From an uncultured Gammaproteobacteria bacterium (GTDB lineage: Bacteria > Patescibacteriota > Microgenomatia > UBA8517): a stretch of 64,000 nt of DNA. Position 1 is the first letter of the stretch. Each line of letters starts with the position of its first letter. The stretch is from contig CAYRUS010000001.1 of assembly GCA_964427735.1 (NCBI GenBank), positions 162,173 through 226,172 on the forward strand, in the 5' to 3' direction. Under the pieces are notes generated by a model, which was not told the origin of the DNA, searched no databases, and saw only the letters and a list, made by a program, of their open reading frames with translations. A program made the position numbers and the translations under genes. Below, in pieces: positions 1-64,000 of the stretch.

Positions 1-170
1 TTAAAAAGTTTTCCATCTTTACCAACCCTCTTGGGCATATCTGCAAATACAGGACCTTCAGAGGTTAGCTTGATGATTATCGCCACAACAATGATAATCG
101 GCAGAAACAATATTAATAAAAATATTGCTCCAAAAATGTCTATTGTTCTTTTGGTAACGTCGTAGAGCAT
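1..170 (-). CDS. Polyprenyl-phosphate glycosylphosphotransferase (bacterial sugar transferase, WbaP/PglC-like), N-terminal 56 codons only; the gene continues past the window start
   Basis: Minus-strand ATG at 168-170 gives MLYDVTKRTIDIFGAIFLLILFLPIIIVVAIIIKLTSEGPVFADMPKRVGKDGKLF. The KRxxD ... IKLTSxGPVxF ... R.GK.GK.F pattern is typical of the N-terminus of small monotopic phosphoglycosyltransferases. It is absent from the ORF track because fewer than 60 aa lie in the window. Confidence 0.6.
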   Translation of the reverse strand, partial: MLYDVTKRTIDIFGAIFLLILFLPIIIVVAIIIKLTSEGPVFADMPKRVGKDGKLF

Positions 171-210
171 ATGCGGCAGGTAATTATTTAACAATTGTAT
201 CAATCATAAC

Positions 211-1299
211 TCATTTGATGTACTTCTTATGATATTTTTCTAGTTTAGTATACAGATCTTTAACTTTTTCGGTTTTATTCATATCACAAACCAAAAGACC
301 ATCAGGTGTGTCTATCACAGCAACATTTGATATACCAATTATACTTATCATTTTTCCTTTTGGTCCAATAATTAAATTTTTGTCTGAATCAATAAAGACA
401 GTATCAGCACCACCATCAACAATTGTTTTCTTTTTAGGTGTAATTAGTGATTTATAGAAAGTTTGCCAAGTCATAACTGATTCCACCCATCCCATGTCAG
501 CTGGAATTGTTGCTCTAACATCTGCAGGTAATTTTTCAAAAATACCGTATTCAATTGAATCCTTCTTAAGCTTGCCATACTCTTTTTTTAAGGTTGAGTT
601 TTGTTTGCTTGTGCCCCAATCACCTACAATCTTCATAAGTCCTTTATACATATCAGGCTGGTATTTTTTGTAATAATCAAGCATGGTATCAGCTTTCCAA
701 ATTCTGTAGCCTGTATTAATTAACCATTCATTTGACTCAAACAACTTTTTTGCGACATGTTCCTTAGGTTTTTCTATATGCTTATCTATTAACATAACAT
801 CAAAACCATTTTTATTGGCAAGCTTTTTACCAATATGAACCCATCCGTTGTGTACACTTGGGTATTCAGCTTTTGCATCAACTGATACTATTTTCTCTGA
901 CTCTTTTGCATATTGACTAGCAGCCTCAAGAGCATCCAAAAAAACTGATTCTTTTGAAATAAAATGTTTTGCCCAGGATATCAGTATTGTTTCACCTGGG
1001 AAATACTTATTAACTACTGCTGTGGCGAGACCACAGGCTGCAAGCAAATCTTTTCTCTCTGGTTCTTTTATAATATTATTATCAGGTACTGGTGGTGCTT
1101 GTTCTTTAATAAACGGAACGTAAGCTTCTTCTGTGGTTATAAAAATATCTTTTGGTTTATAAGCTTTCTTATACCTGTTGTAAGTAATCTGAAAAATTGA
1201 CTGACCATTTACCAAAGGTATGAAAGATTTTGGTTTTGACACACGACTCAAGGGCCAAAGTCTTGTCCCTCTACCTCCTACAAAAATAACAATTTTCAT
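211..1299 (-). CDS. manC: Mannose-1-phosphate guanylyltransferase (GDP-mannose pyrophosphorylase)
   Basis: N-terminal FVGGRGTRLWPLSRVSKPK nucleotidyltransferase signature (GGxGxRLWPLSR), 362 aa, followed by an LbH-like C-terminal part. Confidence 0.8.
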   Translation of the reverse strand: MKIVIFVGGRGTRLWPLSRVSKPKSFIPLVNGQSIFQITYNRYKKAYKPKDIFITTEEAYVPFIKEQAPPVPDNNIIKEPERKDLLAACGLATAVVNKYFPGETILISWAKHFISKESVFLDALEAASQYAKESEKIVSVDAKAEYPSVHNGWVHIGKKLANKNGFDVMLIDKHIEKPKEHVAKKLFESNEWLINTGYRIWKADTMLDYYKKYQPDMYKGLMKIVGDWGTSKQNSTLKKEYGKLKKDSIEYGIFEKLPADVRATIPADMGWVESVMTWQTFYKSLITPKKKTIVDGGADTVFIDSDKNLIIGPKGKMISIIGISNVAVIDTPDGLLVCDMNKTEKVKDLYTKLEKYHKKYIK

Positions 1300-2358
1300 C
1301 TATAAAATACTTAAAAACTCCCTTTTGAAATTTTCTTTTGAAAAACGTTTTGCATTATTAGTTATATCTCTTATATTAAACTTTTTTTCATTAAAGTTCT
1401 CAATAGTTCTTATTATACTATCAGAATCTTGTCTGTCGAAAAACAATCCTGTTACATTTTCTATAACTGTGTCTAGAGCGCCACCTGATTTATAAGCAAT
1501 TACAGGCATACCATATGCCTGAGCTTCAATAGAAACCAGACCAAAATCTTCTATCTGTGGAAAAATCAATGCCCGAGCATTTTTATAGTAATTAATTAGC
1601 TCCTTATCAGAAACATATCCTGTAAATTTAATGTTATCTTTTGACATTCTTTGAAGAAAGCTTTTTTGTCTTCCCTCTCCAATAATAACTAGTGGTAAAC
1701 CCAATTCATTAAATGCCTGTATTACAAGGTCTATTTTCTTATAAGGCACTAATCTGGTGACCACTAAAAAGTAATCTTTTCTTTTCTCAGCTGTAACATT
1801 TTTTGCTGGGATGTTTAGAGGAGGAAAAATTATCTGAGAATCTCTGTTGTAGAATTTTTTTATTCTATTTTTAACCTCTGATGAAATTGAGATTAATTTA
1901 TCAGGACGACCTGAAGCTTGCAGGTCCCATTTTCGTAAATATTTTATAATAGGTTTTGATAGTGTTTTTAAATTTTTATTTTGGAAATATTCATCATATG
2001 CACTCCAAAGATATCTAGTTGGAGTCAAACAGTAACAAATATGCTTTGTATTTGAATCTGTAATTATACCTTTTGCTGCTTCGCTGGTTATGGATATGAC
2101 AACATCGTAGCCCTTAAAGTCAAAGCTCTCAAATGCATTTGGCATTAAATATGCAAAGTATTCGTGATTTTTTTTTATAAACTTAAGTCTTTGTAAATAA
2201 GAAGGGATTACTTGAGGAAAAACTTCTGCCCATTTAGCATTTTTATCATATACAGAAGTGTAAAGCGGTGCCTCTGGAAACATTTCGTGGAGTGTCAGAA
2301 GTACTCTCTCTGCACCTCCCCACTTGTTTACCCTATCGTAAACTAAAGCTATCTTCAT
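1300..2358 (-). CDS. Glycosyltransferase family 4 (GT-B fold, group 1)
   Basis: C-terminal EDFGLVSIEAQAYGMPVIA motif of the glycos_transf_1 domain; 4-bp overlap with the upstream gene. Confidence 0.8.
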   Translation of the reverse strand: MKIALVYDRVNKWGGAERVLLTLHEMFPEAPLYTSVYDKNAKWAEVFPQVIPSYLQRLKFIKKNHEYFAYLMPNAFESFDFKGYDVVISITSEAAKGIITDSNTKHICYCLTPTRYLWSAYDEYFQNKNLKTLSKPIIKYLRKWDLQASGRPDKLISISSEVKNRIKKFYNRDSQIIFPPLNIPAKNVTAEKRKDYFLVVTRLVPYKKIDLVIQAFNELGLPLVIIGEGRQKSFLQRMSKDNIKFTGYVSDKELINYYKNARALIFPQIEDFGLVSIEAQAYGMPVIAYKSGGALDTVIENVTGLFFDRQDSDSIIRTIENFNEKKFNIRDITNNAKRFSKENFKREFLSIL

Positions 2359-3479
2359 TTGAGAGTTTCAGTATAAACCTCTACTGTTTCTTCTGCCATT
2401 TTTCCCCAGGAATACTTTTTAATAAATTCCCGAGATTTTTTGATTCTCTTATTTCTTTCCATTAACTTCATATCTATGACTTTTTGCATTGTTTGTTTGA
2501 CTGAAGTAGTACTTTTTGGATTGAAATATAAAGCATTTTCTCCATAAATCTCTTTTAATACAGGTATTTTGGAAGTTAATACTAGAGTCCCAGCTTGCAT
2601 AGCCTCTAACCCTGGAAGTCCAAATCCTTCAGATAAAGTTGGATATACAAAACCTAAAGAATTTTTATATAAACTATTTAATTCTTCATCAGGAACAAAT
2701 CCTAAAAACTTTATATATTCCTCTGCACCTTCTTTTTTGGCAGAATTGATAATGCGTTCTACAAATTCGCTTCTGGAAGATGCAATGGCTAAATAATAAT
2801 TTTGATTCGAACTCTGATTAAGTTCTTTTATTGCTTTAATGGCAACGTTAATGTTTTTATGAGGATATGCGCTACCTACATATAGAAAATAATTTTTAGG
2901 TAAATTATATTTTTTATAAATTTTTTTATTTGTATCTTTTGAAAAATTTTCATCTATTCCTTCATGCGTAACTATAATTTTATTTGGATTTATTTTGTAA
3001 GTATTCAAAATATCGTCTTTAACAGCTCTACTTGGAACAATAATTCTATTAGAGGAATAAACCGCTTTTAAAAAGGCAATATGATAGCCTATTCGCCAAA
3101 CAAAGTAAGTAAAATAATCTTTGGTAGTTGAATGTTTCCCTGTAAATCTATGCATTGTTAAGTCGTGGATAGTAACCACAAATGGCTTAGAATAAAATAC
3201 AGGTACATTAAAAAACGGGAAATGGACGAGGTCGGGGTTATGTTTTTTTATTAGTGACGGTAATTTAATTTGCTCCTCAAAAGTATAGTGCTTGTAATCT
3301 GCCATTACTTTTTTAAAATTATTTCCTAACTTTATTTGATTGAAGTGCTTTTTCCTTAGTAAAATAATATAGTTATTGGCTCTATCAATTTTGGTTAAAT
3401 TGTCTATAAGACTTTTGGTATACCTACCAGGTCCTGCATTTTCGACCCCATAAAACCTAGCGTCAATTAATATTCTCAT
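2355..3479 (-). CDS. Glycosyltransferase family 4
   Basis: SEGFGLPGLEAMQAGTLVLTS motif; N-terminal Rossmann-like MRILIDARF. Confidence 0.8.
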   Translation of the reverse strand: MRILIDARFYGVENAGPGRYTKSLIDNLTKIDRANNYIILLRKKHFNQIKLGNNFKKVMADYKHYTFEEQIKLPSLIKKHNPDLVHFPFFNVPVFYSKPFVVTIHDLTMHRFTGKHSTTKDYFTYFVWRIGYHIAFLKAVYSSNRIIVPSRAVKDDILNTYKINPNKIIVTHEGIDENFSKDTNKKIYKKYNLPKNYFLYVGSAYPHKNINVAIKAIKELNQSSNQNYYLAIASSRSEFVERIINSAKKEGAEEYIKFLGFVPDEELNSLYKNSLGFVYPTLSEGFGLPGLEAMQAGTLVLTSKIPVLKEIYGENALYFNPKSTTSVKQTMQKVIDMKLMERNKRIKKSREFIKKYSWGKMAEETVEVYTETLK

Positions 3480-4378
3480 GTGATTATCTCTTTGGTAATA
3501 CGAATCAATTTTAATAACTTAATCCCCGCCAAAACTAAAACATTTAAAAAAAGTGGATAATGACTCCACAATCTCTTTTTATAAAATATTTCCATTGAGT
3601 TTATTCCTGTAAGTCTGTACTTAAGTCTTAATCTTACTGGAATTTTTTCTTTAGCTTTGTTTTTCCCTTTTGTAGCACCTTTATAGTGCATTATTGAAAC
3701 TTTAGGAGTATAGAATAATTCATACCCCTGTTCTTTAATTTTCCAAGACAAGTCAATATCCTCACCATCTAAAAAATAATCTTCGTCAAACCAACCTACT
3801 CTATCAAGCAATTGCTTTCTAGAAAGAAAGTAAGCCCCCTGAATAACTTCAACAGAATGTTCTTTATTCGGATCTACATATCCATACCAATATCTGGAAA
3901 AGAGTGGAGAATCGGGAAATATTCTATCCAAGGGTAGTACCAAATGTGTAAATGACACCCAAGGAGTTGGGAATGATCTTCTAGCATCTTTATCCAAAGT
4001 CCCGTCTGCTAAAATCATTTTGCAAGTGACTGCTCCAAGCTTGGGATTTTTTTCAAGCAGCTCAAGGGTATATTTTAGAGTACCTTTTTTAACTTCTGTA
4101 TCAGAATTAAGGAATAAAACATACTTTCCTTTTGTAACTTTCCGTGCTGCATTATTTCCAGCAGAAAAACCTAAGTTTTCTTTATTTTCTACCAAAACAA
4201 CCTGCGGAAACTCATTTTTTATCATTTCCAAACTCCCATCTGTAGATCCATTGTCACTAACGATCACCTCAAAATTTACTTCTTTTTTCACTTTTTCAAG
4301 TGATTTCAAGCAAGCTTTTAATAACTTTTTTGTATTGTAATTAAGAATTATTATTGAAATAACTGGATTCTTACTCAT
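3476..4378 (-). CDS. Glycosyltransferase family 2 (GT-A fold)
   Basis: SIIILNYNTKKLL ... VIVSDNGSTDGS, then a DxD-region LNSDTEV. Confidence 0.8.
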   Translation of the reverse strand: MSKNPVISIIILNYNTKKLLKACLKSLEKVKKEVNFEVIVSDNGSTDGSLEMIKNEFPQVVLVENKENLGFSAGNNAARKVTKGKYVLFLNSDTEVKKGTLKYTLELLEKNPKLGAVTCKMILADGTLDKDARRSFPTPWVSFTHLVLPLDRIFPDSPLFSRYWYGYVDPNKEHSVEVIQGAYFLSRKQLLDRVGWFDEDYFLDGEDIDLSWKIKEQGYELFYTPKVSIMHYKGATKGKNKAKEKIPVRLRLKYRLTGINSMEIFYKKRLWSHYPLFLNVLVLAGIKLLKLIRITKEIIT

Positions 4379-5580
4379 TTTTTTATTTTTCCTAATTCTT
4401 TATAAATATTGTTTAGTGATATAGCCATTTTCTCCCAGCTGTATTTTTCTTCTACTAATTTTCGTGCGCTATTGGCAATTTTCATCGCTTTATTGCTATC
4501 TTTTAGAATACTGATTGTAGCTTTAGCAATATCATTCATATTATTTCTAACAATTATATTCTCTCCATTCTTTACACTTAAACCTTCTGCGCCAACAGAT
4601 GTAGTAACCAAAGGAAGCTTACTTGCCATTGCAGCAAAATGCTTTAAACGAGTACCTCCAGGACCTTTCAAGGGAGAAACAAATACGCTTGATTCATAAT
4701 ACGCCTTTTGGATACTTTCCTCATCATTTTCAGCTAAATCATCAATAATTATACTTTCGCTTTTTCTATCCTTAAGTGTGTCAGGAATATGTTGCCCAAC
4801 TATCCAAAGTTTTGCGTTTTTTAATTCCTTATGCACGATAGGATAAACTTCATCAAGAAGATTAACAGCAGCTTCTACATTCTGTAACCATTTAAAATTA
4901 GCAACAAATAATATTTTTGGATCATTATTTTTCCAGCTTTTTTTAACTTTAAAAAAGTCTAGATTTACACCATTAGGAACAATACCAACATCAAGATCAG
5001 GTACTAAATTTAACATTGCCTCTTTATCTGCCTCTGAAACAGCAACAACTTTGTCCGCTTTTTTCCAATAAACTCTTTCCCAATAACGCAATTTAGAAAC
5101 GTCAATATTGAGTAATGGTCTCAGGTAAGCTTTTGCCTGCTTTTCAACAAAATGTTTATATACTAAATATTCTATTGTTTGTTCTACCAAAAGCACAGGT
5201 ATATCTGTTTTAGGAATATGAGGCATTACATAAAAAGTCTCTGCGTGAATTAGATCATATTTTTCTTTTTTTAGTTCAGCTTCAACTCCTTTTTTTTCAT
5301 CAGGAGATAGGTTTCTAATCACAAGAAACGGATATGGTCCAAATCCCGTCAACAAAATATTCCTAAGTGTCCATGGAGATGCTGTTCTTTTGAAAACTTT
5401 TACACTTTTACAAAACTTACTTAACTCTTTTATATGCTTCCTTTCTTTTTCATCCTTAATAAGTGAAATAAGAGTTATCTCATGGTCTTTGCTAAGATGC
5501 TTTAACAAGTTAAAGGAGCGAATTTGACCACCGGAAGAAGGAGGAAAAGGCAGATATGGAGTAAGCATTAATATTTTCAT
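4375..5580 (-). CDS. Glycosyltransferase family 4
   Basis: N-terminal MKILMLTPYLPFPPSSGGQIR and C-terminal GT-B domain; ATGA overlap with the preceding gene. Confidence 0.75.
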   Translation of the reverse strand: MKILMLTPYLPFPPSSGGQIRSFNLLKHLSKDHEITLISLIKDEKERKHIKELSKFCKSVKVFKRTASPWTLRNILLTGFGPYPFLVIRNLSPDEKKGVEAELKKEKYDLIHAETFYVMPHIPKTDIPVLLVEQTIEYLVYKHFVEKQAKAYLRPLLNIDVSKLRYWERVYWKKADKVVAVSEADKEAMLNLVPDLDVGIVPNGVNLDFFKVKKSWKNNDPKILFVANFKWLQNVEAAVNLLDEVYPIVHKELKNAKLWIVGQHIPDTLKDRKSESIIIDDLAENDEESIQKAYYESSVFVSPLKGPGGTRLKHFAAMASKLPLVTTSVGAEGLSVKNGENIIVRNNMNDIAKATISILKDSNKAMKIANSARKLVEEKYSWEKMAISLNNIYKELGKIKK

Positions 5581-5581
5581 A

Positions 5582-7054
5582 TTATTTTGGCTGATTAAGG
5601 TCTAAAATAATATATTCACCTGTTTTTTCTAAGGTAGAATACTTTTCCTCAAATTTAAGTGTGTCTGCAGAATTAAGATCAACAGATACATAATAATCAG
5701 CACCAAACTCATTTATCAATTGGTCTAAAGTAGTTTCCACAACTGGCCATCCATATCTTTTTGTCTGATACAAAAAAGCTGTGTCACCATTATAAGGAGC
5801 TACAACCAAAGCATCTTTTGGTGTTAATCTGTCAACTGCTTCCCCTGCTGTAATAATTTCTGGGTGATTTACCTGATAATAATCTTTGACTTGATATGCA
5901 CCTATACCAATCATCATCACTGCAGAAAATAATACAAGCCCTCTTCTCAAAACAAGATTTAGGTTTTTTTCATTCCATAAATATAAACTTCCTTGGGAAA
6001 GAATTAGAGCAATTGCTGGCATTAATAACGTTTGATAATAATCATGCCTAACATTCGCTGTTGCAACAACAATAGTATACAAAACAACTCCTACCATAAA
6101 CGCGACATTTATTAATTTTTTGTTCTTTGTCAAGACAGATCCCACTCCAAATGGAATTAACCCCCACATACCTAGAATCAACTTTCCAATTCTTTCACCA
6201 AAAATCCATCTCCAAAATGCAGGTCTGAATCTTATCCCATCTCCATTAAATGCCCATTCAAAATGAGGAATTCCTACCGGAAATTGGTTTATCCAAATAC
6301 GCCAAATCAAAAAAGGAAGTGTAGCTATATTAAGATAAATAAGCATTTTGGAAACAACCCCTGCATTTTTGTATATTTTTTCTTTGTATTTCCTAATAGC
6401 TATTAAAATTATAGGCAAGCTATAAAAAATTGAGTATGGTTTAAGAAGCAAACCTAAGGCTGCAAGTATAGCAGATAAAATAAAATAAATATTTTTGTTT
6501 GTTTTATCAAATCTAAGAAACAACCAAATAGCACCAGTTGCAAATAAAACTACTAGAGGTTCGGGGAGAATCACGCGAGTAAAATAAATATTAAATGGGA
6601 TTAATAAATAAAAAAAGGAAGCTAAAACACCTCCCCACTTACTTATTGTTTCTTTCCCGATACTATAAAGAATTAATGATGTGATTAATGATGTAACAAT
6701 TGACATCAATCTACCTGCAGTCTCAAAGGAAACAAATGGAAGCATATAAGAAAAAGCTACATGAAAAATATTAAATAATGGAAGCTCTACCATCCTCCAG
6801 CCATTGGGATTAAAAAAACCAGATTGTATTGTAGAAATATCATAATATTTAGGTTCAAGTATATTTATGCCTTCTTCTTTAAAAATCCTAGATACAGCAG
6901 CTGTATCTGCTTGTCTCCAGGAATGCCAATCTCCTAATGGTATATTAATTTTGTATAACCTTACTGCAAATCCAACAATTAAAATAATAATTAACCATAA
7001 AACAGGCTTATTTATTTTATCAAGTAGGCTTAGTATAGATTTAATTTTTTGCAT
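5582..7054 (-). CDS. Polytopic membrane protein, GT-C-like glycosyltransferase (divergent ArnT/PMT-like)
   Basis: 490 aa with more than 10 predicted TM segments. The N-terminal loop GDWHSWRQADTAAVSRIF sits where the PMT/ArnT acidic loop motif lies. The C-terminal soluble domain is about 130 aa. Confidence 0.5.
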   Translation of the reverse strand: MQKIKSILSLLDKINKPVLWLIIILIVGFAVRLYKINIPLGDWHSWRQADTAAVSRIFKEEGINILEPKYYDISTIQSGFFNPNGWRMVELPLFNIFHVAFSYMLPFVSFETAGRLMSIVTSLITSLILYSIGKETISKWGGVLASFFYLLIPFNIYFTRVILPEPLVVLFATGAIWLFLRFDKTNKNIYFILSAILAALGLLLKPYSIFYSLPIILIAIRKYKEKIYKNAGVVSKMLIYLNIATLPFLIWRIWINQFPVGIPHFEWAFNGDGIRFRPAFWRWIFGERIGKLILGMWGLIPFGVGSVLTKNKKLINVAFMVGVVLYTIVVATANVRHDYYQTLLMPAIALILSQGSLYLWNEKNLNLVLRRGLVLFSAVMMIGIGAYQVKDYYQVNHPEIITAGEAVDRLTPKDALVVAPYNGDTAFLYQTKRYGWPVVETTLDQLINEFGADYYVSVDLNSADTLKFEEKYSTLEKTGEYIILDLNQPK

Positions 7055-8492: not shown

Positions 8493-9357
8493 AATCTCTC
8501 CTTCCTAATATCAAAAAAGCTAATGCACGCAAAGGTATAAAAATATAATATAAAACTCTCAAATAAATTACCGCTAGTAAACCATAGTTTTTTTTGTATA
8601 AATATACTAAACCCTTTAATTCCCCTATCCATTGGGTTTCTCTTGGCGAACTACTACTTGCACCACCTATGTGTATGATTTCAGCTTTGTCTGTCCATCC
8701 AATCTTAAAACCAGCATTATAAGCTCGCCAACAATAATCAACATCTTCTGCATACATGAATATTTTTTCATCTAATAAACCAATTTTTTCTAGAACATCT
8801 CGTTTAATCAACATAACAGATCCAGAAACCCAACCTACAGATCTTTGTTTTTTGTAATATTTTGCATACCTTTGTTGAAAAGAAGGCAAAAGTAATACTT
8901 TTCTAAAAATATCATCCAATCCAGATACCCACAAAAAAACAGGCAGAGGTGTAGGAAGGTCTCCTGCGTTTGGTTGAAAAGTCAGATCAGGGTTTAATAA
9001 TTTGCAACTAGATATTTGATATTTGTTTTTTTCGGCAAAATCAACCAAAATGTCGAGTGATTTATCAAGTACTTTTGTATCTGAATTAATTAATAATACG
9101 TAATCGATATCATTCTTCAAAAGTTCATCTATTCCAAGATTATTCCCACCAGCAAAACCTAGATTTTTATTACTTTTTATGATTTTCAATTCTGGATATT
9201 TTTTTGATACTGCCGAAATTGATCCATCGGTTGAGTTATTATCAACCAACACTACTTCTAGTTTTGATTTCCATCTCTTCTTTAAAATACTATCAAGACA
9301 ATCAAGTGTTAAATCTTTAGTATTATAATTTACAATAACTACACCTACTTTAGTCAT
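8455..9357 (-). CDS. Glycosyltransferase family 2
   Basis: GVVIVNYNTKDLT ... VVLVDNNSTDGS ... LINSDT. Confidence 0.8.
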   Translation of the reverse strand: MTKVGVVIVNYNTKDLTLDCLDSILKKRWKSKLEVVLVDNNSTDGSISAVSKKYPELKIIKSNKNLGFAGGNNLGIDELLKNDIDYVLLINSDTKVLDKSLDILVDFAEKNKYQISSCKLLNPDLTFQPNAGDLPTPLPVFLWVSGLDDIFRKVLLLPSFQQRYAKYYKKQRSVGWVSGSVMLIKRDVLEKIGLLDEKIFMYAEDVDYCWRAYNAGFKIGWTDKAEIIHIGGASSSSPRETQWIGELKGLVYLYKKNYGLLAVIYLRVLYYIFIPLRALAFLILGRRDYAKTYAKIITKI

Positions 9358-9910: not shown

Positions 9911-9914
9911 GAAG

Positions 9915-10517: not shown

Positions 10518-10595
10518 TAAATTTATTATACTAAAATTTATCTAAGATATCAGACTTGGCTAAAAACAAGTAATTACAAAATGCAAAACAGATGT

Positions 10596-53163: not shown

Positions 53164-53221
53164 GATATAAAGTGTAAAGGTTACAAATTAAAATTTAATA
53201 ATAAGTAGATCATAATTGTAG

Positions 53222-56385: not shown

Positions 56386-57790
56386 TCATATAAACAAACC
56401 CACCCACTATAATTAATATCCAAACTGAAGTCATTGTGTAGCTCAATTGTTCTCTCAAAAGATACGTAATTAATGTCATAACAAGTGTTGCAATCATTGG
56501 CTTTACAAATGATTTTACAAAAGAAAACTTTACATATCTTCGTACAACAATTACTGCAATTATCGAACTCACTGAAACCAAAGCATAGCCTGATGCGGCA
56601 CCGTTAACCCCATAACGCATTGCCAAAACTGGTATAAAAATCCAGGACAAAGTGGTCCACATAACCATGAGTTTAAAGGTGGTTTTGATTTTGCCGATTG
56701 CATTAAGAAGATTAGTGAGCTGTGTCGTTACTGATGCAAAAACAGTATTTATTCCAATAATGCCCAAGGCAACCAAAGCAGGCTGCCATTTTTCATATCG
56801 TGGAATTACTTCTATAAGTACAGGTGCCAAAATGAGCAATCCTGCTAGAGATGGAAAAACCAAAAATGTAATAAAGAAAATTGAACGTTCTAAACTCCTC
56901 TGCAAATGTTCTTTTTCGTCTTGCATTCTGGAAAATGCCGGGAATGTTACTTTTATTACATGATCCATAAAAAACCGCAAAGGTGCTTGCCCCCACTTTT
57001 GCGCCCATCCAAGTAAACCAAGACCACTAGAACCAAGAATACCTCCTAAAACTGCAGTCATCCCATCATCTTTGAGCGTAGCCAAAAGTGTGTTTGCCTG
57101 ATAAGGCACGCCATAAGCTAATAGTTTTTTTAGGGATTTTTTTGAAAAGGCAAAACCTGGAATCCACGGTTTAAGTGCGTACATAGAAACTAAACCTACA
57201 ACTCCTCTCAAAATCACGGCATAGGCAAAACTCAGCACTCCATATCCACTCCAGGCAAAATAAACAGCCGAAATATTGTAAACAAGGTTTTCCAATACCT
57301 GCGGTATTACCAGCTTTCCAAAATCAAGTTCACGTTCAAGTAATACTGAAGGGATTGTCTTAAGCGATGAAAGGAAAAATGAAATTCCTAATGCATATAA
57401 GAGCATTTTTCCTTCATTGCTTAAATTGTATACATCAGAAAGCACTGGGCTTGCTAAAAATAAAACTAAAATAAGTGCAATTACTAATATTTGTTGAACT
57501 GTAAAGGTGGTTTTTAAGTCTTTATCTGTAATAGATTCTTTTTTCTGAATTAATGCAGCTGCAAGTCCAACATCACTAAAATATGCTAAAAAGTTCACTA
57601 CAGCAGACACAATCCAAAATACACCAAATTCATCAGGCTCTAAGAATACTGTCAAAAATCCTGTTGCTACAAGTGATAGAACCGAGAGCAAAAAAGTTCT
57701 TCCAGTAAGAATAACAACACCTCTTACAGCACGCTTTTTTACATTTTCAAGAGTGATTTCTGAAGTTGGGTCTAGATGTTCATCTTCCAC
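56306..57790 (-). CDS. Wzx-type oligosaccharide flippase (MOP superfamily), second copy
   Basis: 494 aa with about 12-14 TM segments; N-terminal KKRAVRGVVILTGRTFLLSVLSLVATGFLTVFLEPDEFGVFWIVSAVVNFLAYFSDVGLAAALIQ, the classic polysaccharide-biosynthesis-protein signature. Confidence 0.75.
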   Translation of the reverse strand: MEDEHLDPTSEITLENVKKRAVRGVVILTGRTFLLSVLSLVATGFLTVFLEPDEFGVFWIVSAVVNFLAYFSDVGLAAALIQKKESITDKDLKTTFTVQQILVIALILVLFLASPVLSDVYNLSNEGKMLLYALGISFFLSSLKTIPSVLLERELDFGKLVIPQVLENLVYNISAVYFAWSGYGVLSFAYAVILRGVVGLVSMYALKPWIPGFAFSKKSLKKLLAYGVPYQANTLLATLKDDGMTAVLGGILGSSGLGLLGWAQKWGQAPLRFFMDHVIKVTFPAFSRMQDEKEHLQRSLERSIFFITFLVFPSLAGLLILAPVLIEVIPRYEKWQPALVALGIIGINTVFASVTTQLTNLLNAIGKIKTTFKLMVMWTTLSWIFIPVLAMRYGVNGAASGYALVSVSSIIAVIVVRRYVKFSFVKSFVKPMIATLVMTLITYLLREQLSYTMTSVWILIIVGGFVYMSAILVLVGSSIKEDVKKSTKLFISRS

Positions 57791-58132: not shown

Positions 58133-58561
58133 TCAATCACTATCCTGTAAGAAATACTCTGCATCCGGAGTCAATTCAAAACCCTCTATATCTTCAATTG
58201 AAATCCACTTAAATTCATCGTGCTCCCAGTTTAGTCTAACTTCACCTGTCTTTAAGCTTGCTTTAATTCCAATTATAACTGCAGAGTCTGTCTTGCCCTT
58301 GACATGAGTTTTTACTGAAAAAGGCTTAAGGTTTTCTATTCCTAATCCAGTTTCCTCATCTATCTCACGCCTTGCAGCATCCAGCACATCTTCTCCATAT
58401 TCCACAGCACCACCTGGCAACGACCAAAGTCCTCCACCACCTGCTTTATCACTTCTTTTAAGAATCAATACCTTACCTTTTTCGTTTTCAATTAGCACCT
58501 TAACACCAACCAAAAAATAGTAATTTATCTTTTTATAATTTGGATCATAATCTCCACTCAT
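58133..58561 (-). CDS. NUDIX hydrolase (possibly nucleotide-sugar hydrolase, Gmm/NudD-like)
   Basis: Nudix box GGAVEYGEDVLDAARREIDEETGL (GX5EX7REUXEEXGU); 142 aa. Confidence 0.8.
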   Translation of the reverse strand: MSGDYDPNYKKINYYFLVGVKVLIENEKGKVLILKRSDKAGGGGLWSLPGGAVEYGEDVLDAARREIDEETGLGIENLKPFSVKTHVKGKTDSAVIIGIKASLKTGEVRLNWEHDEFKWISIEDIEGFELTPDAEYFLQDSD

Positions 58562-58725
58562 GTTTATTTTTTGTATAAATTAATAATTTCATTCTACTTC
58601 ACTTGTCTACAGTAATAAAATAATTACTAAGAAAAGAACAACAACGTCCAGTTCTTGAGGAAGCTAGGAGTTTCAGTGTTAATCTTGATGAATTCTACCA
58701 AGAAAGACAAGCTCCACGCGATATC

Positions 58726-58902
58726 ATGCTAGTGTTAAAACCTAGTGGGAGCACATTTATATTAGAAAGCCAAGGATCTTATTTGCAAGACATTGCAGAT
58801 CCAGACGAAAAGAAAAGAAAATTGTTCGATTATAGAAGAGAGATGAATGAATTTGCAGCATTTCTAAAATACAAATTTTTCAATCAAACTAATTATATTT
58901 AG
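58726..58902 (+). CDS. Orphan small ORF (58 aa) on the opposite strand inside a 345-bp gap; possible small protein or gene remnant
   Basis: Non-repetitive, protein-like translation MLVLKPSGSTFILESQGSYLQDIADPDEKKRKLFDYRREMNEFAAFLKYKFFNQTNYI. The same frame is open for a further 34 codons upstream (from 58624) but has no ATG/GTG/TTG there. Local GC is higher than the flanks. Confidence 0.2.
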   Translation: MLVLKPSGSTFILESQGSYLQDIADPDEKKRKLFDYRREMNEFAAFLKYKFFNQTNYI

Positions 58903-58906
58903 TAAT

Positions 58907-59410
58907 TTAATTAAATCGTTTAAATAATTCTTTAGGCTGTACTGTCCCGTCAATTATTTCAATCCTCAATTTTTTAGCTTTATTCTCCATTCGTCTTGCG
59001 TATTTTATTATTTCATTTTTTTGTAATTCTGTATTTCCCATGGGGTTATCTCTATCAAGGCTACTTAATCTCTCGAGAAGGATGTCTCCCGGTACTGATA
59101 AGTAATAAACCTTGTCAAATTGCGAGAGTATTTCAAACACATTATCAGATAATCCAAACAAATATATTGTCTTATTTGAATCCAAAAACCTTTTTAAAAA
59201 GCTTTTATCCCACATAAATTTGTGGCTATCTAAAAATTCCTTACCAGCATTTTGAGGAAAAGTTACTTTATTACCTTTAGAATCAAACCACGAACTTAAT
59301 CCATCTACTAAATCCGCATCAAATACATTCAAGCCAAGTTTTTTTAAATGTTTAGCAAAGTAAGATTTACCTGAACCGGAAGGTCCAATTACAAGTACTT
59401 TTTTGTTCAT
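58907..59410 (-). CDS. Small P-loop NTPase, kinase-like (paralog of 54125..54622)
   Basis: 167 aa; Walker A VLVIGPSGSGKSY; VFDADLV; LLERLSSLDRDNPMGN LID-like segment. Confidence 0.55.
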   Translation of the reverse strand: MNKKVLVIGPSGSGKSYFAKHLKKLGLNVFDADLVDGLSSWFDSKGNKVTFPQNAGKEFLDSHKFMWDKSFLKRFLDSNKTIYLFGLSDNVFEILSQFDKVYYLSVPGDILLERLSSLDRDNPMGNTELQKNEIIKYARRMENKAKKLRIEIIDGTVQPKELFKRFN

Positions 59411-59421
59411 TGCAAATATTA

Positions 59422-59829
59422 TTAAATATTATATTCACCTTTAACTTTATAGCCTCTGTATTTTAAATCATTCAGCACCCTTTCCAGTACATCCGGGTGG
59501 TATTTTTCAACTTCATCAAGTATGTGTTCACCAAAGTCTATAGTCCACTGAACTGCCTTTTCAACAATATCGCTCTTGTCTTTCGGAAATCCTTCAGGAA
59601 TTTCTGGATATCTGTATATTCTCAACTTCCCTTCTGCCTCCAAGTTTTCTAAATATTCTAGTGCATCTTCTACTTCGATTTCTTCTATGACATCAGTTTC
59701 CTCCTCAGAAACCAACTCACCAGAACTAATTGCTGATTCTTCCATAAAACCATCAGCTGAAAGTTTATATATCGACCCGCTTTTTCCTTTATATGCATGT
59801 TCAAGAGCACCTTCGAACCTTTCATACAT
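59422..59829 (-). CDS. Acidic hypothetical protein
   Basis: 135 aa; central polyacidic stretch EEETDVIEEIEVEDALEYLENLEAEG; no recognisable catalytic motif. Confidence 0.4.
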   Translation of the reverse strand: MYERFEGALEHAYKGKSGSIYKLSADGFMEESAISSGELVSEEETDVIEEIEVEDALEYLENLEAEGKLRIYRYPEIPEGFPKDKSDIVEKAVQWTIDFGEHILDEVEKYHPDVLERVLNDLKYRGYKVKGEYNI

Positions 59830-60020: not shown

Positions 60021-61607
60021 TTACCTCACTCTTAAAAACAACAATTCTTCTACACTCCCATCAGGTTTTTGTGCTTTTGGAAATAATTCAATCAAATTAA
60101 GTTCTTCTGTATTGTGTCCAATCTGATGTCTTGTATTATTAATGACTAAATAAGTCTTATTTCCAGATTCTACTGATTCTTTCAAACTTTCAGGCACTTC
60201 GTTAAGACCAAGCCCTATCCCTTTTACAATTATTTCAGGGTAATTTTGAAGATATATTTGCAAGCCGTCTGGCAAAGTACCGAAATATCCTTCTGTACCA
60301 ACAACTATTCCTTGATTAGGATCTTTGTCGTACTCTTTAATTAAGTGCCCGGAAACCTCTCTTATACCATGACCTGCTGTCCATTCTTCGAGGTAACCGG
60401 ATCTTTCACTTCTTGGTAAAGGAGCTCTTTCAACACTTGTTAAAAGTAAATAGTTTGTATATATGCTTTGTAATAAAAAAATAAGTGAAGTTAAATATAT
60501 CAATGTAGATTTTCCTTTTTTGATAAGTAATATTGCAGGTGAAGAAAGCAAGATAAGATAAGGAAAAGTAAAATAAATGTAACGAGCAGTCATTGTTTTT
60601 GAATACATAGCAACTGCAATTAGAGGAATCAACCACCATAACAAGACTACTAAAAATTCTTTTTTAAATTTCTTGAAAAAAGATAGTTTTGATATAAAGG
60701 CAAGAATTATTAAACCAACAGGAGCAAGAAGTATATAGTAATTTATCATTGCACCTAGATGAGAAATAAACGGATTAAAAGGCTCTTTTAGAATATGCGA
60801 ATAAGGGTAAACATAATCAAAGTTTCTACTCGAGAGTAAATGGAAATTTGGACCAAGACGCAAGATGTTGTACATAATAAAAGCTACAACCACTGAAAGT
60901 AGCAATAGCCCTCCTGCAACAAATAAATTTTTGGGTGTTTTTTTGCTCCAATTAGCTAAAATCAGCAAAGTAGGCATAAGAATAATAAAAAATATAGCTG
61001 GAGATTTGGTTAGCCACGCTGCACCTAAAGCAAACCCCGTAAATAAAGCCGTATCTATACGCTTGTGTTTAACAGTTAATATTCCAAAAACAAAAGACAA
61101 AGTCCCAAACATAGAAAGCATCGAGTCCACCAAAGCTAATCGATCATAAAAAACACTAAATGGCGACAATGCATACAAAAACGCTGCAAATAGTGCAGCT
61201 TTTTTTGAATTAAAAAGAAGATACGAAGCTGTAAATATTCCCAAAAGCGTAACAATACCTGTCAAAACTGATAAGAATCTACCTGCAATAAGAGGATCGC
61301 TAAAGAGCGATAACATTGGCCATAAAGTCCACATAAATAGAGGCTGTTTACCATCTGAAAGAGGGATGAACCTGAGTGTTGGCTCGTTTTTTATAATTTG
61401 TGCCCATCTCACATAAATTGCTTCATCTGCGAAAACTGGAAGTTCATTTAAATTATAAAACCTAATTACTGAAGAAAAAAGAATTATTAGAAGCAGTACA
61501 AATATAGTTTTTTCCCACTTTTTATAAAATTTTAAAAAACCTTCAGAATTCATAAGTGATATGTTTTGATTCCCCTTGCAGGGAGTCTCCCTGCAAGATA
61601 GTCGCAC
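60021..61607 (-). CDS. GT-C membrane glycosyltransferase, ArnT/PMT-like (GT83/GT39-like)
   Basis: N-terminal loop NELPVFADEAIYVRWAQII with the D-E dyad; 500+ aa polytopic. The probable true start is the Met at 61553 (MNSEGFLKFYKK). The annotated 18-aa extension MRLSCRETPCKGNQNISL is encoded by the GC-rich palindrome and is likely non-coding. Confidence 0.7.
   Translation of the reverse strand: MRLSCRETPCKGNQNISLMNSEGFLKFYKKWEKTIFVLLLIILFSSVIRFYNLNELPVFADEAIYVRWAQIIKNEPTLRFIPLSDGKQPLFMWTLWPMLSLFSDPLIAGRFLSVLTGIVTLLGIFTASYLLFNSKKAALFAAFLYALSPFSVFYDRLALVDSMLSMFGTLSFVFGILTVKHKRIDTALFTGFALGAAWLTKSPAIFFIILMPTLLILANWSKKTPKNLFVAGGLLLLSVVVAFIMYNILRLGPNFHLLSSRNFDYVYPYSHILKEPFNPFISHLGAMINYYILLAPVGLIILAFISKLSFFKKFKKEFLVVLLWWLIPLIAVAMYSKTMTARYIYFTFPYLILLSSPAILLIKKGKSTLIYLTSLIFLLQSIYTNYLLLTSVERAPLPRSERSGYLEEWTAGHGIREVSGHLIKEYDKDPNQGIVVGTEGYFGTLPDGLQIYLQNYPEIIVKGIGLGLNEVPESLKESVESGNKTYLVINNTRHQIGHNTEELNLIELFPKAQKPDGSVEELLFLRVR
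61575..61597. promoter_or_regulatory. Perfect GC-rich 23-bp palindrome (CTTGCAGGGAG-T-CTCCCTGCAAG) in the intergenic region between the DPM1-like GT2 gene and the ArnT-like gene
   Basis: Read directly from the sequence: 11-bp arms at 61575-61585 and 61587-61597 are exact reverse complements. It is strongly GC-rich in an AT-rich genome. No T-tract follows on either strand. Confidence 0.5.
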
Positions 61608-61630: not shown

Positions 61631-62389
61631 TTAAACTTTGTACATGCCAAAAATGGCATTTAGCCTTACCCTCATTAAATCTCTAAATCCTTCCCATGAG
61701 TCTTTGATCGCACTAACTCTTTCTGTCCCTTTGTGGTGCCAAATAACTGGAACTTCAGCAACTTTATATCCGAGTTTTCTTGCTATATAAAGCATTTCGA
61801 GATCAAACCCTGCGTTTACTGCAGCACCTTGAACAGCTTTCTTTTCATCAAATATTTTCATTCTTTTAAATATATTTTCTGATGCTTCTCTGGTAAATGC
61901 TTTAAAACCACATTGAGTATCTTTGAAAGGTAAACCCAAAATTATATTCCTAAGAGTAGCAAATCCCCAACCCATTAGTTTACGTACAAATGGAGCACCT
62001 TTTCTTCCCTTTCGTGAACCAATCACGCCATCATATCCTTGTTCAAACTTTGGTAGCAGCTTTTCAATCTGATTAATTGGCGTTGCCTGATCCATGTCTG
62101 TAAACAAAACAATATCTCCTTTGGCAGCTAACATCCCAGCAATGACTGTTCCACCTTTGCCTCTATGAGGTTCTTTTAAAGCACGGACATTTTTATGAGA
62201 TTTTACAAATTTTTCGACTAATTTTAAGGTGTTATCTGTTGACTCATCATCTACGATTAGAAGCTCCCAGGAATACTTTTGTTTATTTAAATAGTCCCAT
62301 ACTTCTTGTAAAACTCCTTTATTGAGATTTTCTTCCTCATTGTAAGCAGGAATTACAACAGATAGTTTTTTAAATTTCATTCTCATCAT
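61631..62389 (-). CDS. Polyprenyl-phosphate sugar synthase (GT2; DPM1/ArnC/GtrB-like)
   Basis: LSVVIPAYNEEENL ... LLIVDDESTDNT ... LFTDMDQATP (DxD) ... TQCGFKAF. Same architecture as dolichyl/undecaprenyl-phosphate glycosyltransferases, immediately upstream of the ArnT-like GT-C gene. Confidence 0.8.
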   Translation of the reverse strand: MMRMKFKKLSVVIPAYNEEENLNKGVLQEVWDYLNKQKYSWELLIVDDESTDNTLKLVEKFVKSHKNVRALKEPHRGKGGTVIAGMLAAKGDIVLFTDMDQATPINQIEKLLPKFEQGYDGVIGSRKGRKGAPFVRKLMGWGFATLRNIILGLPFKDTQCGFKAFTREASENIFKRMKIFDEKKAVQGAAVNAGFDLEMLYIARKLGYKVAEVPVIWHHKGTERVSAIKDSWEGFRDLMRVRLNAIFGMYKV

Positions 62390-62425
62390 CTATAGTATCA
62401 AACTTGAGCTTATTATTGTATATTC

Positions 62426-63964
62426 TTAATCGTCAAAAAAACTAGTTGGATAATATACGCCTATTCCTCCAATAGGGTAAACATTTTCCTCACTTTCAGG
62501 TGGAATAACAATCCTAACTAAAGGATCTTCACTATTCCCGGATTGACTTATGTCCAAGTGTTTGATTATATACCTATAACCAGCATCCTCACCTATAGGA
62601 ACAGAAAATGAAATATTAAACTTGTTTTCGCTTACTGAAGTTTTTATGAATTCAATCGCCTTGTATTTGTAATACAAACTTTGCTTGTTTTCTGACAACA
62701 ATTCGTTGCTTTGCCTTGTTACAGCTACAATAAGCAATAAAAGACTAATTACACCTGTTATTTGATAAAGTTTTGGTTTAAGTCGTAGGAAACTGATCAA
62801 GTAGCTTATCAAAAGCAAAACCGGAAAGATTAAGTAATTAAAATAATATTCGGAAGGACGAGATCCGTAAATAGCAAATAAAAATGGGGAAATAGTCCAA
62901 ACCAAAAATAATCCAAACCAAAAATTTCTTTTAAATTTGTCTTTTGTAAATTTAACCGCAAGTAAAAACAAAAATGAAAATACTATAAAAACAATACCTC
63001 CTGGCAATCGTATACCAGTAAAACTTGAGACAAAATTCTCCCAAACCGGGGCAAAAGCAAACAAATCTAATTCACCCTTACTCAGTAAAAAATTAATTAA
63101 AAGTTTAGTATTTAAAAAATCATGTCTTAAATCAAAAATAACCAAGGGGAATAAAGTTATTAAAAAGCCTACTAAAATTACTACAGCAGATTTTAAGGTC
63201 TTTTTACCGTCCTTTCTCAACTCAGAATAAAAATAGGGGAAAATTATTGGAACAAATAACAAAAACTGAATATGGAAACTCATTCCCAACCCTATTATTA
63301 TTCCTATTAACAAATCGAGTATATGCGTTTTTGCAATAAGATTTCTTAAATATAAAAAGTAAATCAAAACTAGCTGAGCTAAAGGAATGAGCAATGGGTT
63401 CCAAGAAATTGTATCTATACTAATTGTCAAAGGTAAAATCGCCCAAAATAATAAAAACAGTACAGCCACTAAACTATTAAATATTTTCTTTATTACAAAA
63501 AACGAGGATAGAAAAAAGAAGATTCCATAAAATATCATAAAAGAAATTATTGCGTAAGGACTCATCGAGCTTGCCACATAAAAAGGCAAAATCAAATAAA
63601 AAAAGTAAGGGGGTAAGAAAAAACCTTCCGGGCCCAAAACTCTTGGCCCTAAAAGTGTTGGAGATCTTGTGTTTATTATTTCTAAAACTGCATTTGCATC
63701 TCTTTCCTGATCCCAATTAAAGACTGTCCGTTTATCTAATTCATGAAACCTAAAAAGTGAAAATAAAACAAAGACTACTAAAAGAACTAATATTGTTAAC
63801 AAACTTTTGTTCGATATCTTCCCCGGAAAACTAAACTTAAATACAAGCAATATAAACACCAACAAAAATGTTATTGATATAAAATTAAAGAAATTTTGGA
63901 TAGGAGTTTGTACAATCTGCCATTCCAAAATATTTCTGCCATCTACAAATTCCCTTGCCTCCAA
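62426..63964 (-). CDS. Polytopic membrane protein, probable GT-C-like transferase; the 5' end may extend past the window
   Basis: 512 aa with more than 12 TM segments. The ORF-track start is a TTG (LEAREF read as M). The reading frame stays open to position 64000, so the true start may lie outside the window. Confidence 0.4.
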   Translation of the reverse strand: MEAREFVDGRNILEWQIVQTPIQNFFNFISITFLLVFILLVFKFSFPGKISNKSLLTILVLLVVFVLFSLFRFHELDKRTVFNWDQERDANAVLEIINTRSPTLLGPRVLGPEGFFLPPYFFYLILPFYVASSMSPYAIISFMIFYGIFFFLSSFFVIKKIFNSLVAVLFLLFWAILPLTISIDTISWNPLLIPLAQLVLIYFLYLRNLIAKTHILDLLIGIIIGLGMSFHIQFLLFVPIIFPYFYSELRKDGKKTLKSAVVILVGFLITLFPLVIFDLRHDFLNTKLLINFLLSKGELDLFAFAPVWENFVSSFTGIRLPGGIVFIVFSFLFLLAVKFTKDKFKRNFWFGLFLVWTISPFLFAIYGSRPSEYYFNYLIFPVLLLISYLISFLRLKPKLYQITGVISLLLLIVAVTRQSNELLSENKQSLYYKYKAIEFIKTSVSENKFNISFSVPIGEDAGYRYIIKHLDISQSGNSEDPLVRIVIPPESEENVYPIGGIGVYYPTSFFDD

Positions 63965-64000
63965 GCAAACTTTACCATCACAATTTGCATAATTCTTAAC

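Follow-up and report, generated by a model that had tools for sequence, protein, structure and literature searches.

The 64-kb window analysed here (the whole stretch of DNA, positions 1 to 64000, from NCBI contig CAYRUS010000001.1) is occupied almost entirely by genes for glycan synthesis, and raises the question of what a bacterium makes with so many large membrane glycosyltransferases of the GT-C class encoded side by side. The answer favoured here is that the locus, which measures approximately 74 kb in full and lies next to the division and cell wall (dcw) cluster, is probably an outer-face assembly line that builds an envelope glycopolymer or lipoglycan from polyprenyl-phosphate sugars, by analogy with mycobacterial lipomannan (LM), lipoarabinomannan (LAM) and arabinogalactan. 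The case is carried by the fold assignment of the large membrane proteins, by the conservation of their gene order across Microgenomates, and by the enzymes of donor supply and export encoded alongside them.

Content and extent of the locus

A total of 56 credible coding sequences (CDS; g01 to g56) were defined in the window, each of which was scanned against Pfam. The minus strand encodes 53 of them, many of which overlap a neighbour at their stop and start codons. Glycan-related CDS number 50 and glycosyltransferases 40, a class that makes up some 1-2% of bacterial genes in general, leaving six CDS with no evident glycan link (g09, g37, g48, g51, g52 and g53). Pfam identified 13 glycosyltransferases of family GT2 (PF00535; g04, g08, g15, g21, g25, g27, g31, g42, g43, g45, g46, g47 and g55) and nine of family GT4 (PF00534; g02, g03, g05, g11, g12, g19, g20, g30 and g44), while the GT-C class comprises 17 large polytopic proteins and, counting the Wzy_C protein g07, 18 proteins overall. 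A first-pass annotation, made from the letters and translated reading frames alone, had estimated about 20 GT2/GT4 and about 17 GT-C-like enzymes in a region where nearly every gene served glycan synthesis, running off both ends of the window. The Pfam total of 22 GT2 and GT4 proteins and the 17 large GT-C proteins agree closely with those estimates, and the locus does extend further in both directions, by about 2.7 kb past position 1 and about 7.5 kb past position 64000.

The flanks were read on two Logan contigs, L004 and L006, that are 100% identical to the window. The full locus of approximately 74 kb represents about 10% of the 759,860-bp NCBI contig and holds 19 GT-C-type genes in addition to the Wzy_C gene. 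Beyond position 1 (L004 11130-13775) are found a 212-amino acid (aa) minimal Bac_transf phosphoglycosyl transferase (208 bits) and a 666-aa DUF4012 protein, followed by RecO, the glycyl-tRNA synthetase GlyRS and then the dcw cluster MraZ-RsmH-FtsL-FtsI-MurA. The Bac_transf and DUF4012 genes separate the locus from RecO, GlyRS and dcw, and the DUF4012 protein may belong to the glycan system. Beyond position 64000 come, in order, the remainder of a double GT-C gene (g56), a PMT_2 gene, an ArnC-like GT2, a PIG-V-like paralogue of g29 and, at the locus edge, a GT2-GtrA fusion, after which an efflux-type gene follows. Three opposite-strand genes at L006 2189-4229 (385, 190 and 90 aa) have no precomputed Pfam hits; the 385-aa product is the g29 paralogue (26% identity over 220 aa, E 4e-9).

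With MraZ-RsmH-FtsL-FtsI-MurA in its flank, the locus belongs to a peptidoglycan-making bacterium, and an archaeal (methanogen) origin is ruled out. Informative organism names among the homologues of g36, g17 and g14 were all Microgenomates (Woese-, Davies- and Pacebacteria), so that, as judged from these sequence matches, the host is a Woesebacteria-like member of the Microgenomates, within the Candidate Phyla Radiation (CPR, or Patescibacteria). These names confirm the suggestion of the first-pass annotation that the DNA comes from an AT-rich bacterium with a possibly reduced genome. Many public metagenome-assembled genome records that contain a Microgenomates-type locus are titled 'uncultured Gammaproteobacteria bacterium' (L011, L014-L017 and others), and of L043 and L069 one bears the name 'Candidatus Bathyarchaeia archaeon' and the other 'Candidatus Parcubacteria'. 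Such titles are probably placeholder names or the result of mis-binned contigs.

The G+C content of the window is approximately 31% overall and is even along its length, ranging between 28% and 35%. With this flat profile, and no mobile-element genes in the Pfam scans, an origin as a mobile island or phage was rejected. The plus-strand GC skew was negative in nearly all 2-kb bins, the cumulative skew reaching -4.8; a chromosome-wide, unusual G/C strand disparity has been described in some related lineages in the report of a complete Microgenomates genome (PMC7143001). Scans of the window for tRNAs and against Rfam gave no matches.

Assignment of the large membrane proteins to the GT-C fold

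The 17 large polytopic proteins of the window are as follows.

g06, 5582..7054, minus strand: GT-C of the PMT_2/PMT type (PF13231 56.4 bits, PF02366 28.3 bits, above cut-off)
g13, 12802..14220, minus strand: GT-C of the PMT_2 type (PF13231 46.1 bits), with distant blastp matches to g32-g35
g14, 14210..15898, minus strand: GT-C of an unmodelled family, designated D
g17, 17811..19850, plus strand: divergent GT-C of the PMT_2/GT39 type (NCBIfam LA_3751/3752 putative glycosyltransferase, E 3e-10; domains of its homologues)
g29, 30254..31435, minus strand: GT-C of the PIG-V type (PF04188 55.7 bits)
g32, g33, g34 and g35, 33409..39809, minus strand: tandem PMT_2-type GT-C paralogues, designated family A (PF13231 34-47 bits, above cut-off)
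g36, 39906..41873, plus strand: GT-C of an unmodelled family, designated C, with an oligosaccharyltransferase-like architecture (the open reading frame (ORF) begins at 39876, 10 codons ahead of the start of the database protein P0001)
g38, 42512..43732, minus strand: GT-C of family GT87, PimE-like (PF09594 29 bits, cut-off 25)
g39, g40 and g41, 43704..48756, minus strand: tandem GT-C paralogues, designated family B, of the PTPS_related/PMT_2 type (PF10131, PF13231)
g49, 54619..56385, minus strand: another GT-C of family C, paralogous to g36 (30% identity over 591 aa, E 2e-64)
g54, 60021..61607, minus strand: GT-C of the PMT_2/PMT type (PF13231 58.6 bits, PF02366 36.5 bits)
g56, 62426..64000, minus strand, start at about 65596: C-terminal PMT_2-like module of a 1056-aa double GT-C protein (frame open to the window edge; hhalign)

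Eleven of the 17 (g06, g13, g29, g32-g35, g38, g40, g41 and g54) score above the Pfam gathering threshold for GT-C families, and eight of these (g06, g13, g32, g33, g34, g35, g41 and g54) exceed it for PMT_2. The PMT model PF02366, with a cut-off of 22.7 bits, was exceeded by g06 (28.3), g32 (35.6), g34 (32.2) and g54 (36.5); g33 fell short at 21.6 bits and there was no reported PF02366 match in the remaining candidates. PTPS_related (PF10131) was matched by g40 at 39.7 bits and by g41 at 26.9 bits, the latter also matching PF13231 at 29.9 bits. We take PF10131 to be a member of the GT-C clan, a placement supported by the cross-matches of g39 and g41 to PMT_2. The PMT_2 match of g39 lies 0.7 bits short of the cut-off (25.4 against 26.1 bits), and along its entire length g39 shares 28-31% identity with g40 and g41 (blastp, E 1e-57 to 1e-64).

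For g17, which has no Pfam match itself, PF13231 or PF02366 is present in 21 of the best 120 homologues, and one homologue bears the name 'glycosyltransferase family 39 protein'. The half of g56 that lies within the window aligned to the window's own PMT_2 profile, A2, with a probability of 97.6% (hhalign, E 4e-12), and in the full protein (L006 6794-9964) a PTPS_related match covers residues 87-417, outside the window. The g56 protein thus joins two GT-C modules, a PTPS_related one in its N-terminal half and a PMT_2-like one in its C-terminal half.

Members of family A are 28-33% identical to one another, and their first membrane helix is followed by an acidic motif of the 'WDEA' type. Their nearest solved sequence relative is ArnT (E 8e-8); the PMT_2 profile also matches the protein O-mannosyltransferases TMEM260 (E 3e-4) and Pmt4, behind ArnT. 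In family B, whose members are 28-37% identical, an invariant DD motif lies beyond the first membrane helix. The g38 orthologue in the related locus L008 has a weak PIG-M match. Acidic residues were located from sequence after the first membrane helix in all four families (WDEA in A, DD in B, E53/D57 in D and H133-D134 in C), and appear to sit where the catalytic loop of a GT-C enzyme would be expected. In structural comparison the multi-helix membrane module matched those of GT-C enzymes with solved structures.

Taken together, the searches with hidden Markov models (HMMs), profiles and structures establish that all 17 large polytopic proteins are of the GT-C fold. The first-pass annotation had allowed that they might prove to be transporters or other non-transferases; the HMM, profile and structure results, together with the acidic motif in each family, speak against this, and the only transporters found in the window are Wzx flippases and an ABC-2 exporter. 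Its list of families needs partial revision. PMT/PMT_2, PIG-V and Wzy_C members are present, and the two or more unassigned families that it anticipated correspond to families C and D, modelled below. No window protein matches YfhO (PF09586) at E <= 0.01, the proteins described as 'YfhO-like' matching PF10131 and PMT_2 instead; a YfhO gene is present in the related locus L008. GT87 (g38), absent from that list, has to be added.

A fold does not make an enzyme, and many of these proteins might be inactive, as degenerate paralogues, scaffolds or transport-related membrane proteins. Several matches are indeed weak, with g39 below its cut-off and g38 at 29 bits, and g17, g36, g49, g14 and g56 have no direct Pfam match. 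Against such decay, the loop that follows the first membrane helix retains, in each family, acidic and aromatic motifs that are invariant in dozens of orthologues sharing 40-50% identity. All reading frames are intact, one-to-one orthologues are retained in very small genomes, and we consider widespread inactivity extremely unlikely.

Families C and D

Neither of these families has a curated model. Family C (g36 and g49) matched no Pfam family at E <= 0.01 and no NCBIfam model, and family D (g14) gave no Pfam-A or NCBIfam match; the best 120 homologues of g36 and of g14 were likewise without a Pfam domain. An AlphaFold2 model of g36 built from 53 homologues had a mean predicted local distance difference test (pLDDT) of 92 and a predicted template modelling score (pTM) of 0.93, and the model of g14 a pLDDT of 90. 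According to these models both families fold as GT-C. The structures nearest to family C were oligosaccharyltransferases (OSTs) and DPY19, which accounted for all of the first 18 Foldseek hits (E 2e-9 to 7e-7), and the structure searches with families C and D also returned AftA, AftB, AftD, EmbA and PimE. The predicted architecture of family C is a membrane domain followed by a C-terminal globular domain, and its best structural match is to OSTs.

The likeness to OSTs is one of structure. Loop 1 of family C reads HGHDGxWH, g36 and g49 sharing the motif 'AHGHDAVWH', and the C-terminal domain carries IWDWFDT, in which W562, W564 and D566 are nearly invariant. Comparison of conserved motifs revealed neither WWDYG (or WWD[YWF]G) nor a loop-1 DxD, and g36 and g49 do not match Pfam STT3. 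When the PDB was queried by sequence with g14, g17, family B and either the entire family C protein or its C-terminal domain, nothing meaningful was returned, and profile-profile comparison of family C gave weak probabilities of 21% against the window's PMT_2 set and 2% against family B. Family C is represented by 1,858 sequences at the 50%-identity cluster level. Elsewhere the g49-type module often forms the C-terminal half of proteins of approximately 1,000-1,160 aa (L007 15516-18953, L008 15372-18836, P0375 and P0379), one of which has a DUF3863 match in its N-terminal part; the g49 of the window stands alone at 575-588 aa.

A conserved gene order across Microgenomates

The following genes border or belong to the conserved parts of the locus.

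g30 and g31, 31413..33407, minus strand: GT4 and GT2 at the left edge of the syntenic core (Pfam; positional orthologues 40-58% identical)
g37, 41875..42546, minus strand: small membrane protein (about 220 aa) lacking Pfam and NCBIfam matches
g42 to g47, 48735..54121, minus strand: block of cytoplasmic glycosyltransferases comprising g42 and g43 (GT2), g44 (GT4) and g45, g46 and g47 (GT2) (Pfam)
g50, 56306..57790, minus strand: Wzx-type flippase (PF13440 198 bits)

When the family C profile was run against GTDB species representatives, it found 177 loci, of which 55 had full 10-kb flanks. Within 22 kb around the g36 orthologue, these 55 loci contained a median of 9 GT-C-like ORFs (range 4-13). 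The best identity to g36 among the representatives returned was 48%. The order g31<g32<g33<g34<g35<g36>g37<g38<g39<g40<g41 was repeated in at least 15 loci, several labelled Woesebacteria and some holding extra inserted GT-C ORFs. The paralogues best match their positional counterparts, at approximately 35-59% identity (28-37% for g37). The conserved core, with its ten-gene GT-C set, spans approximately 16 kb, at about 32.5-49.5 kb of the window. It runs through a GT2, four PMT_2 enzymes, family C, g37, GT87 and three PTPS/PMT_2 enzymes, and its genes have one-to-one orthologues in many Microgenomates species. Genomes of the Daviesbacteria type have a second conserved order (g40, g39, g38, g41, g50, g49, g36, g35, g47, g45, g44). 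The block g44-g45-(g46)-g47 is kept in many loci and the pair g50-g49 in others, and in a second Microgenomates genome the orthologues of g36 and g14 occupy glycosyltransferase- and GT-C-rich neighbourhoods approximately 72 kb apart on one contig. By these sequence comparisons the window is not a one-off, and is an instance of a locus type conserved across the class. Since the tandem paralogues in the window are only 28-37% identical to one another, the duplications must be ancient and each copy has been retained.

The position of g37 between the orthologues of g36 and g38 is kept in L007, L008 and 29 fetched loci. The protein has hydrophobic ends and a hydrophilic middle, and may be an accessory subunit of the g36- or g38-type GT-C. 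That g37 and g38 are one frameshifted gene was rejected, as they are separate genes in other genomes.

This conservation bears on whether the locus has a single product at all. It could instead be an aggregate of independent, fast-changing surface-polysaccharide loci resembling those for O-antigen or capsule, that is, a diversity island under pressure from phages or hosts. In favour of such an origin, the two Wzx flippases and the ABC-2 exporter provide three distinct ways out of the cytoplasm, beside a Wzy_C protein; the flanks of the core differ between genomes, with two major arrangements, the Woesebacteria type and the Daviesbacteria type; and the GT2/GT4 content varies from locus to locus. 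It would not explain why the GT-C core, g44-g47 and g50-g49 are syntenic at 35-60% amino acid identity across species representatives, which is the opposite of serotype-style replacement; nor do the flat G+C content and the lack of mobile-element genes described above amount to an island signature. An aggregate of this kind is, in our judgement, very unlikely.

Donor supply, export and the proposed assembly line

The remaining glycan genes provide precursors, cytoplasmic assembly and export.

g01, 211..1299, minus strand: mannose-1-phosphate guanylyltransferase, for GDP-mannose (Pfam NTP_transferase and ManC beta-helix; NCBIfam GMP_PMI 188 bits, below cut-off)
g02, g03, g04 and g05, 1300..5580, minus strand: cytoplasmic GT4, GT4, GT2 and GT4 (PF00534/PF00535 above cut-off)
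g07, 7041..8492, minus strand: Wzy_C protein of the polymerase, WaaL ligase or PglL-type O-oligosaccharyltransferase class (PF04932 46.8 bits; no NCBIfam match)
g08 to g12, 8455..12836, minus strand: GT2 (g08), g09, WcaF-like O-acetyltransferase (g10) and two GT4 (g11 and g12) (Pfam/NCBIfam)
g15 and g16, 16039..17780: GT2 (g15, minus strand) and S-adenosylmethionine-dependent methyltransferase (g16, plus strand) (Pfam)
g18 to g21, 19868..24565, minus strand: methyltransferase (g18), two GT4 (g19 and g20, the latter 515 aa) and GT2 (g21, 431 aa) (Pfam)
g22 and g23, 24567..26063, minus strand: ATPase and permease of an ABC-2 glycan exporter, Wzt/Wzm-like (PF00005, PF01061)
g24, 26097..27371, minus strand: Wzx-type flippase of the MOP family (PF01943, PF13440)
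g25, g26 and g27, 27377..29206, minus strand: GT2, DUF2304 small membrane protein and GT2 candidate polyprenyl-phosphate-sugar synthase (Pfam/NCBIfam)
g28, 29207..30208, minus strand: GDP-fucose-synthase-like NAD(P) epimerase/reductase (PF01370 187 bits; NCBIfam Fcl 294 bits, cut-off 500)
g55, 61631..62389, minus strand: GT2 candidate polyprenyl-phosphate-sugar synthase (best NCBIfam PgfS 92 bits, ArnC 67 bits, below cut-off)

Two of the GT2/GT4 proteins, both encoded within 21720-24565, are unusual in build. The first 300 or so residues of g20 match no family, and an insertion of approximately 170 residues splits the GT2 domain of g21, with Pfam matching residues 6-109 and 278-362. The 186-aa product of g09, with two membrane segments, has no Pfam or NCBIfam match.

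Sugar supply and modification are represented by g01 and g28, the acetyltransferase g10 and the methyltransferases g16 and g18. Candidate polyprenyl-phosphate-sugar synthases, recognised from sequence, are g27, g55 and two enzymes just outside the window, the ArnC-like GT2 and the GT2-GtrA fusion. The best NCBIfam matches of g27 are PpgS (129 bits, equivalog cut-off 370) and AglJ (106 bits), both below cut-off, and the adjoining g26 is a DUF2304 protein (PF10066, 70 bits), an arrangement that resembles, at the level of family similarity, the pairing of mycobacterial PpgS and Rv3632. The presence of PpgS-, ArnC-, PgfS- and DPM-type-like GT2 genes and of a GtrA domain in the locus suggests the donors that the GT-C enzymes would use. 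A Wzx/Wzy set is also present, consisting of Bac_transf (outside the window), the Wzx flippases g24 and g50 and the Wzy_C protein g07. No Wzz, GNVR or LytR_cpsA_psr domain was found in the Pfam scans of the 56 CDS or the precomputed Pfam annotation of the flanks, and outer-membrane export components and a chain-length regulator were not found for the locus.

From these parts the following route can be proposed. GDP-mannose (g01) and a GDP-6-deoxyhexose (g28) would feed a cytoplasmic pathway in which the Bac_transf enzyme of the flank starts chains on polyprenyl phosphate and the GT4 and GT2 enzymes extend them on polyprenyl diphosphate, with acetyl and methyl modification. The lipid-linked glycans would then cross the membrane through the two Wzx flippases and the ABC-2 exporter, which together indicate at least three export routes. 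In parallel, DPM1/GtrB-type GT2 enzymes (g27 with g26, g55 and the two outside the window) would load single sugars onto polyprenyl phosphate. On the outer face the GT-C enzymes could then add sugars in sequence, each with one specific sugar and linkage, to yield a conserved, lineage-specific glycopolymer or lipoglycan. Such an assembly line would differ in its working from a variable O-antigen system. A final en-bloc transfer to an acceptor may be performed by a family C enzyme or by the Wzy_C protein g07.

An extension of this scheme is that family C constitutes a new bacterial OST-like lineage, transferring en bloc, to protein or cell wall, the glycan built by the ten-gene GT-C line, and that the resulting glycoconjugate is the main host- and phage-facing surface structure of these ultrasmall, probably episymbiotic bacteria. 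We offer this as speculation and regard it as distinctly unlikely.

The main output could alternatively be protein glycosylation, the PMT_2/PMT-type GT-C enzymes O-glycosylating surface or secreted proteins such as pilins, S-layer proteins or adhesins in the manner of actinobacterial Pmt or Streptococcus mutans Pgf, with family C acting as an OST-like and g07 as a PglL-type enzyme. The Wzy_C domain also occurs in the O-oligosaccharyltransferases PglL and PilO. The same reading gains from the PF02366 matches of g06, g32, g34 and g54, from the matches of the PMT_2 profile to TMEM260 and Pmt4, from PgfS as the best NCBIfam match of g55, and from the modelled proximity of family C to OSTs and DPY19. 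Yet ArnT, the solved sequence relative nearest to family A, acts on a lipid acceptor; family C lacks both the Pfam STT3 match and the canonical WWDYG; no candidate substrate such as a pilin or S-layer protein is encoded in the window or flanks; and ten GT-C genes in fixed order suit the stepwise building of a single glycan better than ten parallel protein modifiers. We regard protein glycosylation as the main output as rather unlikely, and the two activities are not mutually exclusive.

Several points weigh against the envelope assembly line itself. Functions are assigned at the level of families, all NCBIfam matches lying below their curated cut-offs. The Pfam scans gave no domain of an Emb/Aft arabinosyltransferase, of a LytR-CpsA-Psr ligase or of a chain-length regulator. 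Protein glycosylation would account just as well for the PMT-type matches and for the structural likeness of family C to OSTs and DPY19. Expression and a single pathway are assumed, as the clustering and translational overlaps of the genes suggest. Lastly, the GT-C counts in related loci may be slightly inflated by fragments, because they derive from stop-to-stop ORFs and best blastp matches.

Other genes of the window

The glycan genes are interspersed with a few CDS of less obvious role.

g48, 54125..54622, minus strand: small P-loop kinase-like protein (AAA_18 and SKI matches)
g51, g52 and g53, 58133..59829, minus strand: NUDIX protein, P-loop kinase-like protein and acidic 135-aa protein without a family, forming an islet without a clear glycan link

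Both g48 and g52 have AAA_18/shikimate-kinase-like matches. Possible roles for g48, g51, g52 and g53 include phosphorylation of sugars or polyprenol, or hydrolysis of nucleotide sugars.

Comparison with known systems

The closest analogy is with envelope assembly in mycobacteria and corynebacteria (PimE/GT87, MptA-C, EmbA-C, AftA-D, Ppm1 and PpgS-Rv3632-Rv3779), with which the locus would share more than ten GT-C enzymes acting sequentially on the outer face and the use of polyprenyl-phosphate monosaccharide donors. Both possess a GT87 member (here g38) and a PpgS-like GT2 beside a DUF2304 protein (g27/g26), and AftA, AftB, AftD, EmbA and PimE recur as structural neighbours of families C and D. 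The locus differs in having no Pfam Emb or Aft matches, two families (C and D) without a counterpart model, and a CPR host with a genome under approximately 1 Mb. Mycobacterial envelope-glycan genes are dispersed, whereas the locus forms one contiguous syntenic block. The sequence searches do not support membership in the mycobacterial families, apart from the GT87 match and the sub-cut-off PpgS match.

The three-component systems GtrA/GtrB/Gtr*, CsbB-GtcA-YfhO and ArnC-ArnE/F-ArnT follow the same logic, with a GT2 that produces the polyprenyl-phosphate sugar, a small flippase for its passage across the membrane and a GT-C for its attachment. Corresponding parts in the locus are g55 and the ArnC-like GT2, each beside PMT_2 genes, and the GT2-GtrA fusion at the edge, and ArnT is nearest to family A. 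These systems involve one decorating sugar and one GT-C, in contrast to the 17-19 clustered GT-C enzymes here, and YfhO was not detected in the window. STT3/AglB/PglB and DPY19 resemble family C in structure but not in sequence, with no STT3 match, empty PDB profile searches, IWDWFDT in place of WWDYG and HGHDGxWH in place of DxD.

With the GT39 enzymes PMT/Pmt and the S. mutans Pgf system the locus shares PMT/PMT_2 matches, a DE-type loop-1 motif and a PgfS-like GT2 (g55) beside a GT-C. It differs from them in that no MIR domains were found in the Pfam scans of the 56 CDS, ArnT is closer than PMT, paralogues are many rather than one or two, and no substrate proteins are encoded nearby. Loci for O-antigen or capsule synthesis of the Wzx/Wzy and ABC types have in common with it Bac_transf, GT2/GT4 enzymes, Wzx, Wzy_C, ABC-2 and acetyl- and methyltransferases. 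They contain zero to two GT-C proteins, are typically 10-30 kb and are serotype-variable, unlike the present locus of approximately 74 kb, with 18 such proteins in the window and a conserved GT-C core.

Significance

The first-pass annotation held the system as a whole to be probably uncharacterised, and our literature search agrees, having found no paper that joins 'GT-C' with CPR and only passing remarks on the numbers of glycosyltransferases in CPR genomes. One paper counts 29 glycosyltransferases for a Microgenomates genome of 801 kb (PMC7143001), another mentions GT87 together with Dol-P-mannose synthases from a Saccharibacterium (PMC6031116), and a further one gives approximately eight 'dolichol-phosphate mannosyltransferases' for Peregrinibacteria (PMC4736985).

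The building blocks of the locus are of known kinds and do not constitute a categorically new mechanism. The novelty lies in how large the locus is and how much of a minimal genome it takes up, in a ten-gene GT-C core whose fixed order is kept across the class, in the two GT-C families without a model and in the double GT-C fusion. CPR genomes are stripped-down, and to our knowledge no Microgenomates have been cultured and the manner in which they build their cell surface and attach to hosts is largely obscure. That approximately 10% of a 760-kb contig is given over to this locus, and that its fixed-order core is kept across species, argues for a defined, important and previously undescribed envelope glycoconjugate. 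Families C and D, the OST-like structure, the natural double GT-C fusion and the anciently diverged paralogues offer targets for the study of GT-C specificity. An assembly line of this kind would extend the logic by which mycobacterial LAM and arabinogalactan are assembled outside the membrane to a very distant bacterial lineage.

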